The translations under genes were made by a program, and so were the position numbers. Of a DNA stretch of 8,254 nucleotides, positions 84 through 7,934 are shown piece after piece (positions within the stretch are counted from its first letter, which is position 1; the number at the start of each line of letters is the position of its first letter). This DNA is from a virus. Its lineage: Duplodnaviria; Heunggongvirae; Uroviricota; Caudoviricetes. The stretch lies in IMG/VR virus record IMGVR_UViG_2663763413_000004; one strand, given 5' to 3'. The notes beneath the pieces were generated by a model. That model had not been told where the DNA came from. It saw only the letters and a program-made list of their open reading frames with translations, and made no database searches.

Positions 84-584
84 TGTTGCCCCCACAAACA
101 GACTTCACGCTCAATCTCACGGCGAGTCATCAGCCCTTTCCATTGCTTACCGCCAGCGTATGTCCAGCGCCGTAGCTGATCACATGCGCCTTTGATATCG
201 CCCTGGTTTATTTTGCGAAGAAGCGTCGATGTTCTGAAATTGCCAGCGCCCACGTTGCACGTTGTAAACGAATGAGTAAAGAGCGCCGCGCGTTGTTTCC
301 GGTATATCGACTGTGATGTACGGGTTAATTTGTCTGGCGACAGTGGCAAGGTCTTTATTCAGGAGGGCTTTGCATTCTGCTTCGGTATACGTTTTACCGA
401 GCATGATGTCTTTTCCGGTGTGTCCGTGACATACAGTCCATACGCCAACGATATCTTTGTATGGTATGTAGCTGACACCTTCCAGGCCATCGTCACCACT
501 CGGACCAGTGATGAGCACAGACGCTATGGCAACAGCCCCACCACCAATAGCAGCAGCAATAGCCTTGCGTAATGATGGCGACAT
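80..584 (-). pseudogene. rrrD: SAR endolysin (phage-21 R / RrrD-type lysozyme), disrupted by a +7 frameshift
   Basis: ORF 180..584 gives the N-terminal 109 aa, including a Gly/Ala-rich signal-anchor-release segment ([20 protein letters not shown]), and ends ...[12 protein letters not shown] 80..349 resumes from residue 34 as [18 protein letters not shown]...CLWGQQ in another frame. Joining them gives 165 aa, the length I recall for RrrD. The break coincides with a perfect tandem 7-mer at 251..264. Start ATG 584..582 overlaps the holin stop (TAATG), with GAGG upstream. Confidence 0.85.
251..264. repeat. perfect 7-bp tandem duplication (cacgttg x2) causing the endolysin frameshift
   Basis: Plus strand reads gcc-cacgttg-cacgttg-taaacg. 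Removing one copy restores the coding strand TAC AAC GTG GGC GCT GGC (YNVGAG) and a continuous 165-aa endolysin. Confidence 0.9.
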
Positions 585-1388: not shown

Positions 1389-2501
1389 ATGAAAAAATTA
1401 ACAGTGGCAATTTCTGCTGTAGCTGCATCAGTACTGATGGCGATGTCTGCTCAGGCAGCTGAAATTTATAATAAAGACAGTAACAAGCTGGATCTATACG
1501 GGAAAGTTAATGCCAAGCACTACTTTTCCTCTAATGATGCAGATGATGGTGATACTACTTATGCCCGTCTTGGCTTCAAAGGTGAAACCCAAATCAACGA
1601 TCAACTGACTGGTTTCGGTCAGTGGGAATATGAATTCAAAGGCAACCGTGCTGAATCTCAAGGTTCTTCCAAAGACAAAACCCGTCTTGCATTTGCAGGC
1701 CTGAAATTTGGTGATTACGGCTCAATCGATTACGGCCGTAACTACGGTGTAGCATACGACATCGGTGCGTGGACTGACGTCCTGCCAGAATTCGGTGGTG
1801 ATACCTGGACCCAAACAGATGTGTTCATGACTGGTCGCACTACTGGTGTTGCAACTTATCGTAACAACGACTTCTTTGGTCTGGTCGATGGCCTGAACTT
1901 TGCTGCTCAGTATCAGGGTAAAAATGACCGCACTGACGTAACTGAAGCCAATGGTGATGGTTTCGGTTTCTCCACTACTTATGAGTATGAAGGATTCGGC
2001 GTGGGTGCAACCTATGCTAAATCAGATCGCACTGACGGTCAGGTCGCCTATGGTAAGAGCAAATTCAATGCCTCCGGCAAAAATGCGGAAGTATGGGCTG
2101 CAGGCCTGAAATATGATGCGAACAATATCTATCTGGCTACCACATATTCTGAAACTCAGAATATGGCTACCACATATTCTGAAACTCAGAATATGACCGT
2201 TTTTGGTAATAACCATATTGCAAACAAAGCACAAAACTTTGAAGCAGTAGCACAATATCAGTTTGACTTCGGTCTGCGACCATCTGTTGCTTACCTTCAG
2301 TCAAAAGGTAAAGACCTTGGTGTTCATGGTGACCGAGACTTAGTCAAGTATGTCGATGTCGGTGCTACTTACTACTTTAATAAAAACATGTCCACTTTTG
2401 TTGATTACAAAATCAACTTAATTGACGATAGTAAGTTTACCAAAACAGCTGGTATTGATACCGACGACATCGTCGCTGTAGGTCTGGTTTATCAGTTCTA
2501 A
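1389..2501 (+). CDS. nmpC: outer-membrane general porin, NmpC/OmpD/Lc family (prophage moron)
   Basis: 370 aa. Signal peptide [23 protein letters not shown] followed by AEIYNKD; conserved porin blocks ([49 protein letters not shown]) and the C-terminal VGLVYQF ending in Phe. Divergent from the lysis genes, as in DLP12. Symbol assigned from recall of the NmpC N-terminus. Confidence 0.9.
2135..2194 (+). repeat. perfect 30-bp in-frame tandem duplication inside the porin gene
   Basis: ggctaccacatattctgaaactcagaatat occurs at 2135..2164 and again, identically, at 2165..2194. It encodes the duplicated decapeptide [20 protein letters not shown]. Confidence 0.95.
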
Positions 2502-2689: not shown

Positions 2690-3073
2690 TCAATTAGAAT
2701 TATTAGCAACGATATCCATATCTAACCGGATATCTAATGCCATTAACATCCCTTCAATTATGCCCTCAGCCTTCTGTAACCTTTTCCCGATATAACCATC
2801 CGAGCAGCAATGCTTACTTGCCAGTGACATGAATGTCATACCACATACATAATAATCTACTAATAAATCGTGTAAATCGCTGTTGTTCTTTTTCAGACGG
2901 GCCATGCACCCGCAAATGATCATCGCGTCATCGTCACAACATTGCGGGCGAGATTTTACTTTTGAAGGAATTAATCCCTTAAAACCGGCGGCAACGGACG
3001 ACCAGGTCACATCTTCATGATTATTAGCCGCCCACGCTCCCCAACGCTCAAGAACCATCTGAATATCACGCAT
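2690..3073 (-). CDS. quuD: late-gene antiterminator Q (phage 82 / QuuD type)
   Basis: [24 protein letters not shown]...[27 protein letters not shown]..., 127 aa from the ATG at 3073..3071, which has GGAG upstream. The ORF track extends it to 3088 ([10 protein letters not shown]); the shorter start matches the recalled QuuD length. Confidence 0.88.
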
Positions 3074-3158
3074 CAACTTACTCCACAAAAATCAGACCAG
3101 AACGCCAATTACAAGCAAAAATCAACAAAACAGTATTAGTTGATTGTTATCTCTGACT

Positions 3159-3299
3159 TCATACTCCTGCTCCTGTCAGGGTTTTGGCGTAATTCTTCAG
3201 TATTCGGTAATCGGTCAAAACAGAACCAGGAAAACGATATAAGCGCAGGCGCACCCAGCGGCGGCGAAGACGCTCTGCCATATAAGACTCAAACATCAT
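3159..3299 (-). CDS. ylcG: small nin-region protein YlcG (46 aa)
   Basis: Hand translation: [46 protein letters not shown]. Its ATG (3299..3297) overlaps the rusA stop as ATGA. Missing from the ORF track, presumably below its length cut-off. Identification from position and the recalled 46-aa length. Confidence 0.7.
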
Positions 3300-3662
3300 T
3301 CATCTCCCAGTTCGGTGATGGTCAGCTCCAGCTTCCCACCTTTGGTAACGGGCATCTTCACAACACGGTAATCAACGACCTGAATATCATCCAGCCAGAA
3401 ACCTGCTTTGGTGAGTGCGTCAAAAGCGGCTTTTTGCAGATTATCCAGGTCACGGCGACGGCGATCCGGCATGTGGCACTCAATACGGATTTTCACTCAC
3501 TGGCATAGCCAAGCCGATATCCAGCATTGCGTTTTTAATGATTCGGGCGACGTTATCGCAGTATGCCTGCCCCTCTGCGCTGACGTGCGTGCGCCCACGA
3601 TTATGGCGGTAATAGCGATTATTGCTCGGAGGCCAAGGTAATGTGATGCTGTAGGTATTCAC
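3296..3662 (-). pseudogene. rusA: Holliday-junction resolvase RusA, disrupted by a +4 frameshift
   Basis: ORF 3480..3662 encodes residues 1-55 ([24 protein letters not shown]...LAMPV) and then stops. ORF 3296..3496 encodes the rest ([26 protein letters not shown]...ELGDE) in another frame. Together they give the 120 aa of RusA. GTG start at 3662..3660 overlaps the ybcO stop (GTGA). Confidence 0.85.
3494..3501. repeat. perfect 4-bp tandem duplication (cact x2 on plus; GTGA-GTGA on the coding strand) causing the rusA frameshift
   Basis: Coding strand reads CCA GTG AGT GAA AAT CCG TAT TGA. Deleting one 4-mer gives CCA GTG AAA ATC CGT ATT GAG TGC CAC (PVKIRIECH), the expected RusA sequence. Confidence 0.9.
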
Positions 3663-5050: not shown

Positions 5051-6058
5051 TTGTATGGTATGTCAATGGCCATGTCGGTCGGGAGTTGTGCAACACCTGT
5101 CCAGACTAATTTTCCTGGTTACACCCCGGGTGCAGATATCATTAGTGTTTCACCCACCAGAAACCAGGTCGATCTCATTGGTGATGTTGTTTATTCCCAG
5201 ATAAAAGGAACTCGTTCTGTCAGACAGCTTCACATGTCAGTTCTTGTCCCGCGAACAAATGATTTAAAACCAGCCATTATTTATTATCCCGGCGGCGGAT
5301 TCATGTCTTCTGAACATGACAAATTTATTGAAATGAGAATGGCTCTGGCTGAAGCTGGTTTTGTTGTGGCCGCTGTAGAATACAGAACAATTCCTGATAC
5401 ATTTCCAGCACCAGTTGAGGATGGGAAAGCTGCAATACGTTACTTGAGAGAACATGCCAGCGATTATGGGATTGATCCTCAAAGAATCGGAGTTCTGGGT
5501 GACTCTGCCGGTGGATGGCTTGCCCAGATGATGGGAACTACAAATGGTGACAAAACCTTTAATAAAGGTGACTTTCTTCAGCAATCAGCAGATGTTCAGG
5601 CAGTTGCCACACTTTATGGGATTTCTGACTTGTTGAATATTGGCGAGGGGTTCCCTGAATCAGTGCAGGAGGTTCATCGATCTCCTGCCGTAACCGAAGC
5701 CTTAATGATCAATGGCCCTGCATTCAGAAGTTTTGCGGGAGCCCCCATAACAGCGTCAAAAGAAAAAGCGCTAAACGCCAGTCCAATCGGACATATGAAA
5801 GGAGTAAAACCCCCATTTCTTATTATGCATGGTAGCAAAGACACTCTGGTTTCACCTGAGCAAAGCGCCAAACTATTCAGGATGTTGAAGAAGAACGGCG
5901 ATAACGCTGAGTACGTTCTGGTAGAAGGGGCTGAGCATGGCGATAATACATGGTATCAGCCAATTATTATAAACAGAGTTGTTGAGTGGTTTACTAAAAA
6001 CCTGGGAACCCCCATAAAAACCGCTACCCAACAACAAAAAACAAACGCTGACCTGTAA
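5051..6058 (+). CDS. alpha/beta-hydrolase fold esterase/lipase (Abhydrolase_3 / HSL-like family); start uncertain
   Basis: Oxyanion-hole motif YYPGGGF, nucleophile elbow GDSAGG, YRTIPDTFPAPVEDG block, and candidate catalytic Asp (HGSKDTLV) and His (GAEHGD). The track start is TTG at 5051; ATGs follow at 5060, 5066 and 5072, none with a convincing Shine-Dalgarno. An in-frame ATG at 5006 is followed at once by TAA (see findings). Confidence 0.85.
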   Translation: MYGMSMAMSVGSCATPVQTNFPGYTPGADIISVSPTRNQVDLIGDVVYSQIKGTRSVRQLHMSVLVPRTNDLKPAIIYYPGGGFMSSEHDKFIEMRMALAEAGFVVAAVEYRTIPDTFPAPVEDGKAAIRYLREHASDYGIDPQRIGVLGDSAGGWLAQMMGTTNGDKTFNKGDFLQQSADVQAVATLYGISDLLNIGEGFPESVQEVHRSPAVTEALMINGPAFRSFAGAPITASKEKALNASPIGHMKGVKPPFLIMHGSKDTLVSPEQSAKLFRMLKKNGDNAEYVLVEGAEHGDNTWYQPIIINRVVEWFTKNLGTPIKTATQQQKTNADL

Positions 6059-6407: not shown

Positions 6408-7934
6408 TCAAAAATAAATCTCACCATCAACCATATATTTAAGAGTACTTATCGCCTGCTGGGCGGATATTACTTTCATTAAAGGATAGTGTTTAAAAAC
6501 AATGCCATTCATAAAATAGATATCACAGGTTTTATTATCTGTATTAATTATAATTTTTTCGAATATTTTATAGGCAAGTGTACGACATAGCTCTCGCCCA
6601 TTTTTACTGGTTAAATCAATAGCATGAAAATCACCAAGTGAACTCACCCCTTTACTCTTCAAAGTTTTTAATGATACCGAAGCCCTTCGTAATTCCTTAT
6701 CTAATAGTCTTATTTTCTCTGCTATAGCGGTAACTTCAGGCGCGACAGACAATGCAACGATTAAATTATTAATTTTCATCTGAAGCTCAATAATTTTTAA
6801 CTCTAAAGTTTCATTAGCATCTTTCTTGTTTTCAACTGGTTGAATTTTGCTACAATTAAAAAGCAATTCATTAATGATATTATAATCAACCAAATCTCTT
6901 TTTATTGATGGTCTGTCACATCGATGTAATCTTCTCATCGGACAAACATAATAGCCATGCAAACTTCCAGATACCGCATGAACAATCATGGTATTACCAC
7001 AAGCCTCACACTTCATAACTGTTCGAAGTAGATTTATTAGCATAGGATTCTTGCTACTATTGCTAATACCAAAAGGTGCCAACCGAATTTCCTGTACAGC
7101 GTAAAACAAATCATCTGATATGACTCTGGGATAATAGCCAGCGATTTCACTTATCCCTTTCCCTCTTGCACGATATGAAGGTACGCATATACCTATCAGA
7201 GCTTTATTCGCTAATAATTTTTCAATTACAGAAGGTCCCCATGCACTTTCTTTTCCTGAGAAATTCTTTACAGCATGATCATTTAAATACTTGGCTATTG
7301 CATTCAATGAGCGCCTTTCCATCCTGAGTTTAAAAATTAGCTCAATAGTTTTCACCCTGTCGGGGTCTGGAACAAAAGCCGTTCTTTTGTCATCCAATGA
7401 GAGCCATCTCGGACAAGAAGCCGTCATAATCGTGCCTGACTCCAGTGCATCCTGCCGTTTTTTCTTCCATGATAATTTAACCCGACTTGACTTTATCTCG
7501 CTTTCTTCATTTGCCCTTTGTGCTATAAGTATGGCTTTTATTAATGAATATGGCTCATTCAATGAGTCAATATTATAGACTGTATTATCGCAAAGAGTTA
7601 TAACATCAATACCGTGATTCAAAATCAATTTCAGACGCTCAATCGCTTCACCGACTTTTTCTCTTGAAAGTCTGTCCAGACTTTCAACTAACAATGTAGT
7701 CCCTGGCAATATATAACCATGTTCTATAGCATCTAAAAATTCCGAAAAAGCTCCTGATTGTGCATGCTTTCCATTGAATGCGCTTAACCCCAAATCTTCA
7801 TACGTTACGGTATCAAGGTAATAATCACTATTTACCTTTAGCCATTCAGTAATAAGCCTTCTCTGGCGGTTTAATGAATCACCAGACATCTGACCTGGTG
7901 ATGAAAATCGCATATATGCTATGGCTTTTTTCAT
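6408..7934 (-). CDS. ybcK: large serine recombinase (508 aa; resolvase-type catalytic domain, recombinase domain, zinc ribbon, coiled coil)
   Basis: N-terminal AIAYMRFSSPGQ...SLNRQ and LLVESLDRLSRE match resolvase/invertase catalytic motifs (Arg-x-Ser nucleophile region). C-terminal CEAC...YYVCPMRRLHRC is a zinc-ribbon-like cysteine cluster, followed by a predicted coiled coil. AGGTG lies 5 nt upstream of the ATG. Length and locus agree with my recollection of DLP12 YbcK; the symbol is recall-based. Confidence 0.85.
   Translation of the reverse strand: MKKAIAYMRFSSPGQMSGDSLNRQRRLITEWLKVNSDYYLDTVTYEDLGLSAFNGKHAQSGAFSEFLDAIEHGYILPGTTLLVESLDRLSREKVGEAIERLKLILNHGIDVITLCDNTVYNIDSLNEPYSLIKAILIAQRANEESEIKSSRVKLSWKKKRQDALESGTIMTASCPRWLSLDDKRTAFVPDPDRVKTIELIFKLRMERRSLNAIAKYLNDHAVKNFSGKESAWGPSVIEKLLANKALIGICVPSYRARGKGISEIAGYYPRVISDDLFYAVQEIRLAPFGISNSSKNPMLINLLRTVMKCEACGNTMIVHAVSGSLHGYYVCPMRRLHRCDRPSIKRDLVDYNIINELLFNCSKIQPVENKKDANETLELKIIELQMKINNLIVALSVAPEVTAIAEKIRLLDKELRRASVSLKTLKSKGVSSLGDFHAIDLTSKNGRELCRTLAYKIFEKIIINTDNKTCDIYFMNGIVFKHYPLMKVISAQQAISTLKYMVDGEIYF

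Follow-up and report, generated by a model that had tools for sequence, protein, structure and literature searches.

A perfect in-frame tandem duplication in a prophage porin gene is probably an error of draft assembly

We describe a perfect 30-bp tandem duplication in a prophage-borne porin gene that adds ten residues to the encoded protein without disturbing its frame, and we propose that it probably reflects a local error in draft assembly instead of an allele that the bacterium carries. It is thus most likely neither a new porin variant nor a real feature. The sequence analyzed here, which we term the window, is 8,254 bp long and constitutes the whole of contig AOQJ01000029.1 of the draft genome GCA_000397385.1, to which it is identical. 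The original prediction had taken the duplication for a biological allele. The evidence points instead to an artefact: the allele occurs on a single draft contig, it is accompanied there by two further duplications, the differences around it display an odd mutational spectrum, and it coincides with a site of the type that triggers sequencing errors.

The gene in question (1389..2501, + strand) codes for a porin of the prophage NmpC/Lc/“OmpC” type, which is 370 residues long as deposited and 360 residues long in all its relatives. Its translation begins with an MKK... signal peptide ending in AQA/AEIYNK, bears the L3 motif PEFGG at residue 133 and terminates in YQF. It is recognized by the Porin_1 profile (PF00267) with 495.8 bits (cut-off 23.7) across profile positions 1-337 of 337 and by the NCBIfam OmpC subfamily model NF007841 with 506.6 bits (cut-off 484); it scores below the cut-offs of the NCBIfam equivalogs for PhoE and OmpF, and it matches solved OmpC and OmpK36/37 structures at E ~1e-130. 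Hence, by its profile match, its modeled 16-stranded barrel fold and its combination of signal peptide, PEFGG motif and C-terminal Phe, it is a general bacterial porin of the OmpC/OmpF/PhoE family. A 1083-bp version annotated as “porin OmpC” (WP_000737271.1) is found in complete genomes, and the window gene is the same sequence once the extra 30 bp are subtracted.

The genomic setting is equally characteristic. The genes are arranged in the order rrrD-essD-porin-quuD-ylcG-rusA-ybcO-ninE-ybcN, followed by genes for an alpha/beta hydrolase and the recombinase YbcK, with the porin gene, which runs in the opposite direction, flanked by the late antiterminator gene quuD on one side and by the lysis pair essD and rrrD on the other, as is typical of NmpC/Lc-type porins. 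This is the position of nmpC in the prophage DLP12 and of lc in phage PA-2. Thus, the original prediction of a prophage-borne general porin is upheld by both the Porin_1 match and the location between the Q antiterminator and lysis genes. The NmpC/Lc porins (DLP12 nmpC, PA-2 lc and those labeled “porin OmpC” by PGAP) resemble the window porin in family, in their position between the Q and the holin/lysozyme genes and in their opposite orientation; they differ in being 360 residues long, as against the 370 of the window porin with its duplicated decapeptide, a form that no other record displays. In the complete genome of UPEC132, the same segment lies within a complete lambdoid prophage inserted adjacent to icd.

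That the repeat is truly present in the deposited sequence is clear. Tandem Repeats Finder reported one array, at window positions 2134-2195, with a period of 30, 2.1 copies, 100% matches, 0 indels and a score of 124, and a separate repeat finder agreed on this 30-bp array. The maximal perfect period-30 tract thus spans 62 bp (2134..2195, + strand) and comprises the 30-bp tandem duplication together with 2 nt (TG) of junction microhomology. In codon phase, the first copy (2136..2165, + strand) encodes A250-M259, which in the undisturbed protein are residues 4-11 of strand beta-11 and the first two of loop L6, and the second copy (2166..2195, + strand) encodes A260-M269, the extra decapeptide, which would join L6 if the protein were real and folded. 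The 370-aa open reading frame (1389-2501) remains open through the duplication to the usual C-terminus, ...VYQF. A perfect 30-bp tandem copy is not attainable by chance in 8 kb (~8254 x 4^-30), and so the repeat is a genuine property of the deposited sequence; its presence in the bacterium is a separate question. The two perfect, codon-phased copies sustain the original prediction of a ten-residue in-frame duplication, the placement of which at 2135-2194 was one base off (2136-2195). Such perfection of the copies would imply a recent origin if the duplication were a real mutation.

The comparison with database alleles suggested along with the original prediction turned up no second carrier. 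An exact look-up of the 370-aa protein in an index of 153 billion gene positions returned exactly one contig, AOQJ01000029.1. Its 90%-identity cluster has 2,741 members, and among the members listed all are at most 360 residues long, save one of 380. For nucleotide searches we used junction probes, namely 40-mers unable to seed on single-copy sequence, with a control probe across the undisturbed porin site. The porin junction was recovered from 0 of the 5,426 complete E. coli genomes, as against 916 of the same 5,426 for the undisturbed site. A 31-mer across the junction was likewise not found in the GTDB species representatives, IMG/VR or the JGI metagenomes, nor was a 40-nt junction probe in phage and plasmid collections. 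Thus, in the genomes and collections searched, the allele does not recur in a second assembly or in another isolate. One seeming exception was a 407-aa homolog (P0016), which was the top hit of the homology search, scoring above the ordinary allele; it turned out to owe its length to a 141-bp duplication unrelated to ours, on a contig that is clearly misassembled and to which we return below.

The porin duplication is not the only one of its kind in the window. The same segment is present in 366 complete E. coli genomes at a coverage of at least 80%, and a base-by-base comparison with the best match, UPEC132, uncovered a single substitution and three insertions, each of which is a perfect tandem duplication (7, 30 and 4 bp). 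The first companion (251..264) is a doubled CACGTTG, inserted at 251-257 with 0 nt of microhomology, which lies 250 nt from the contig end and frameshifts the lysozyme gene rrrD; the resulting truncated 134-aa lysozyme is on record solely in contig AOQJ01000029.1. The second (3493..3501), with its unit inserted at 3493-3496 relative to UPEC132, is a doubled TCAC with 1 nt of microhomology that frameshifts rusA. Junction 40-mers for the 7-bp and 4-bp events were found in 0 of the 5,426 complete E. coli genomes. All three duplications, with microhomologies of 0-2 nt, fall within 3.3 kb of the contig.

As a control for the mutational spectrum, we examined six independent complete genomes, obtained from a beluga whale, a pig, a chicken, two humans and a monkey. 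Across the same segment these display 140 substitutions and no duplications, the only indels being two of 1 bp in homopolymers. The spectrum of the window, with one substitution and three duplications, differs sharply from this (Fisher p = 8e-6), and the differences surrounding the porin event hence do not fit the natural pattern of mutation that would be expected around a genuine allele.

A literal interpretation of this cluster would be that all three duplications are real and stem from a local or strain-wide process generating short tandem duplications, such as defective flap processing. E. coli mutants in the 5′-exonuclease of polA exhibit a similar duplication process. Short tandem duplications are described in yeast rad27 mutants with defective flap processing (PMC5677150). 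The occurrence of three short duplications with 0-2 nt of microhomology in 3.3 kb would accord with such a process. However, at this density the whole genome would harbor well over 1,000 duplications, most of them causing frameshifts, and could not support a viable cell; no known factor would restrict the process to 3 kb of a prophage; and a sister draft (see below) has a different event at one of the same sites, with none in complete genomes. We consider this explanation exceedingly improbable.

The sister draft came to light through a 58-aa product from the C-terminal part of RusA that gene callers predict only when this rusA allele is disrupted upstream. This product is on record in just two contigs, AOQJ01000029.1 and AOQN01000031.1, the latter belonging to GCA_000397465.1; judging only by their adjacent accession numbers, GCA_000397385.1 and GCA_000397465.1 would come from one project. 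The sister contig encodes a normal 360-aa porin and an intact lysozyme. Its rusA gene carries a different tandem duplication, +TG, situated 2 nt from the +TCAC of the window, a positional coincidence with a chance of ~0.003, and the +TG junction occurs in no complete E. coli genome among the 5,426 searched. That duplications at this rusA site are seen in only two neighboring drafts, and differ between them, counts in favor of an artefact. Over 15 kb, the sister contig departs from UPEC132 by five substitutions besides the +TG; with one such event over that length, any pipeline fault would not be pervasive, and this speaks against the artefact to some degree. As a separate observation, the sister differs from the window by three third-codon-position C>T changes at 1886, 1892 and 1949, within 64 bp of each other in the stretch coding for an 11-residue motif common to all general porins; this cluster could be a small gene-conversion patch from a paralog or a chimeric consensus.

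The sites at which two of the three duplications occur are themselves informative. In the porin gene there is a perfect hairpin, CATATTCTGA-AAC-TCAGAATATG, with a 10-bp stem and a 3-nt loop, at 2143..2165; it is repeated at 2173-2195, and the undisturbed gene has it as well. Including this one, the window has only two perfect hairpins whose stems reach 10 bp; as single-stranded DNA, the porin hairpin has a folding energy of -7.8 kcal/mol (z = -11.7). The duplicated unit consists of GCTACCA followed by the hairpin, such that its end coincides with the 3′ edge of the hairpin, with the TG microhomology at the junction; such a hairpin would fall within a 30-nt unit chosen at random with a chance of ~0.002. 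Directly upstream of the rusA duplication there are four GGC motifs (3454..3477, + strand; starts at 3454, 3460, 3468 and 3475) that form the densest such cluster of the window: four GGC within the 40 nt before the site place it in the top 0.2% of window positions. The +TG of the sister draft likewise follows this cluster directly. The 7-bp rrrD site displays no known trigger of sequencing error. Nakamura et al. (PMC3141275) identified inverted repeats and GGC sequences as the main two causes of the reproducible, sequence-specific errors of Illumina sequencing, and such errors lead to gaps and apparent branching in de novo assembly (PMC3141275). Thus, the duplications are restricted to drafts, clustered (three events in 3.3 kb) and located in error-prone contexts, namely the hairpin and the GGC cluster, with a sister event at rusA, as an artefact would predict.

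Apart from its role in this argument, the second hairpin copy (2173-2195), with a tail ACCGTTTTTG extending to ~2205, was flagged as terminator-like within the porin coding region. The hairpin has no match in Rfam. We considered a functional RNA or terminator and set it aside: the stem is AT-rich and lies inside a coding region, in an arrangement conserved in 916 genomes, and the resemblance is probably incidental.

The scenario that we favor, an error of assembly, would run as follows. The contig is a short, repeat-bounded piece of a lambdoid prophage in which, as assembled, three sites have a short stretch twice in succession. Reads crossing the stable hairpin in the porin gene, or the dense GGC cluster in rusA, would suffer sequence-specific errors and a loss of coverage, and the assembly graph would break or branch at these sites. 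A break might then be closed by joining overlapping ends without removal of the overlap, leaving a perfect tandem copy. The real gene would be the ordinary 360-aa prophage porin of hundreds of E. coli genomes, and the intact frame would be a one-in-three accident of the length being 30. The artefact is deduced rather than observed; the step from miscalls to a duplicated join is our own suggestion and is the weakest link of the chain, and the argument from sequence-specific errors presumes Illumina data. Further, the lengths of 4, 7 and 30 bp share no one k-mer-related size, which also weighs against an artefact.

Two other accounts of these lengths were considered and set aside. A single k-mer cause (30 = k-1, with k = 31) is possible for the porin event, and it leaves the 4- and 7-bp events unexplained; we regard it as speculation. 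A transposon footprint, in the form of a retained target-site duplication, is at odds with three differing lengths, and we know of no E. coli insertion sequence that makes a 30-bp target duplication.

The above-mentioned 407-aa homolog offers a precedent for an assembler-made porin “allele”. It is this porin allele lengthened in frame by 47 duplicated residues and is encoded on the 3.6-kb contig JARCCX010111000.1 (GCA_029782595.1), which has two perfect 141-bp tandem duplications, at 1566-1848 and 3042-3324, one in frame in the porin gene and one in the gene for the Q antiterminator, in addition to a direct repeat of 300 nt and a stray fragment of a porin. The identical 141-bp lengths at unrelated sites indicate an assembler artefact; 141 is a common maximum k-mer size. 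Like the window, this is a short contig in which the same porin allele harbors a perfect tandem duplication in frame and a neighboring gene has a second one; the difference lies in the lengths, both 141 bp in that contig, one size of the sort that a k-mer artefact typically leaves, as against 4, 7 and 30 bp in the window. Hence, assemblers can create porin “alleles” of this kind. Another over-long homolog, of 406 aa from an ENA contig (P0041), shows the first strands twice in its N-terminal region, in one NmpC-like and one OmpC-like version, and looks like a chimeric assembly of paralogs.

The hairpin and the TG microhomology are equally expected of real replication slippage and do not discriminate between slippage and an artefact. 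The principal rival to an assembly error is that the duplication is a real, recent, strain-private mutation that arose by hairpin-assisted slippage, lengthening L6 from ~12 to ~22 residues with the barrel retained and with a neutral or mildly deleterious effect on function. The nascent strand would copy the hairpin at 2143-2165 and fold, its 3′ TG would re-pair with the TG 30 nt upstream (2134-2135) and 2136-2165 would be copied twice. The perfect copies, the 2-nt microhomology and a unit ending at the 3′ edge of a stable hairpin make up the classical geometry of such events, for which assays of slippage at hairpins with direct repeats provide general background (PMC4134008). As in the classical cases, the window has a stable hairpin in the unit and a junction at the hairpin foot, with a microhomology of 2 nt; those cases involve longer direct repeats and were verified genetically, whereas the event in the window is known from the deposited sequence alone. 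Slippage would, moreover, need three independent rare events beside one substitution, against a natural ratio of 140 substitutions to 0 duplications, and 0 of the 916 complete genomes with the same hairpin site have slipped. On balance, we hold slippage to be a serious but rather unlikely explanation.

Structural modeling bears on the same alternative. For the 360-aa allele, an AlphaFold model (P0002, identical in this region) has a pLDDT of 84-88 over residues 240-280, with strands beta-10 at 232-244, beta-11 at I247-Q257 and beta-12 at 270-280, and it superposes on the OmpC/OmpK36 structures 2j1n, 6rd3 and 6v78 with a TM of 0.85. In this model, A250-M259 correspond to eight residues of beta-11 followed by N258-M259, which begin L6. 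The duplication, confirmed as being in frame, does therefore adjoin L6; it does not, however, lie just after the YDANNIYLA strand as had been thought, given that 8 of its 10 residues are within beta-11 and that YDANN forms the end of beta-10 and the periplasmic turn. Across 37 homologs the decapeptide is almost invariant, and natural length variation (0-7 residues) is found entirely downstream, in the TVFGNNH stretch at the tip of L6.

The model of the 370-aa protein has a mean pLDDT of 56, which falls to 31-45 over residues 241-270, and its barrel still matches OmpC with a TM of 0.80-0.81. Modeling with and without the duplication, as envisaged at the outset, gave a usable local structure for the ordinary allele and a poorly predicted site for the duplicated protein. 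Being a tandem copy, the duplication can in net terms amount to a ten-residue extension of L6, and an even residue count such as ten maintains the in/out alternation of the strand. In the simplest fold that we can envision, IYL and the first copy would form beta-11 and the second copy would pass into L6, taking it from ~12 to ~22 residues. To this extent, the earlier notion of a longer surface loop without loss of the barrel is plausible, but the low confidence of the model at the site does not bear it out.

Several of these observations would be compatible with a product of slippage: the length is a multiple of three and the residue count even, so that frame and strand alternation are preserved; both models superpose on OmpC/OmpK36 (TM 0.85 and 0.81); and up to 7 extra residues in L6 are tolerated among the homologs. 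In uropathogenic CFT073, further, both mRNA and protein are produced from the prophage nmpC genes at 37 °C (PMC12890032), and together with the match in family and locus this indicates that the undisturbed gene is a bona fide accessory porin. Against these stand the natural length variation of L6, which occurs at the tip and never in the near-invariant decapeptide, and the drop in pLDDT at the site to 31-45 from the 84-88 of the ordinary allele. It is highly doubtful that there exists a real slippage product in the form of a folded and exported porin with an L6 ~10 residues longer and an altered recognition by phages, colicins or antibodies.

A further reading, that of the original prediction, holds that the duplication is both real and adaptive, i.e., that a lengthening of the surface loop was selected for changing phage, colicin or antibody recognition. 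Support for it is indirect: L6 is surface-exposed and variable in length among the homologs, and there are known cases of porin loops in which a short in-frame duplication has a clinical phenotype, such as the GD/TD insertions of OmpK36 from Klebsiella pneumoniae (6rck, 7pzf and 8pyz), which share the fold and are among the best structural matches of the window porin. These are found repeatedly in clinical lineages, with an associated resistance phenotype. They are 2-residue insertions in the constriction loop L3 with solved crystal structures, whereas the window, a single draft contig, has 10 residues added where beta-11 meets L6. The allele of the window occurs once, with no recurrence or spread in the collections searched; it duplicates a conserved strand and not the variable tip; and two neighboring phage genes are frameshifted in the same contig, which suggests decay or error and not selection. 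As all the evidence for an artefact applies here too, we judge an adaptive origin to be very improbable.

If such a folded and exported product of slippage were nonetheless real, the tandem copying of a barrel strand would be a viable one-step route to the extension of a surface loop. Even then, the duplication would amount to a strain-private form of a familiar accessory porin and be of small biological weight. Its broader value is as a caution that perfect in-frame tandem duplications in draft assemblies can mimic surface-loop variants with an engineered look. Two checks help to tell them from real alleles: the presence of companion small duplications with an odd mutational spectrum and the presence of error triggers, such as hairpins and GGC clusters, at the sites.

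Certain other features of the prophage came to light in the course of these comparisons. In two complete genomes, NZ_CP147065.1 and NZ_CP103739.1, an IS1 element splits a near-identical porin gene in two; natural inactivation of the gene thus occurs by insertion of such elements, and the nmpC gene of E. coli K-12 is inactivated by IS5. Just past the left end of the window, a gene for iss, a bor-like serum-survival lipoprotein, adjoins the lysis cassette in UPEC132 (L001, 2205-2498), implying that this prophage has two or more “moron” genes for the outer membrane, the porin gene and iss among them. As cargo located between the genes of the nin region and emrE, the prophage bears an alpha/beta hydrolase of the BD-FAE/Abhydrolase_3 type (5051-6058, + strand) and the 508-aa serine recombinase YbcK (6408-7934, - strand). 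The start of the hydrolase varies among annotations, with products of 330, 335 or 347 aa, and the gene caller applied to the sister draft gave 251 aa on identical DNA.
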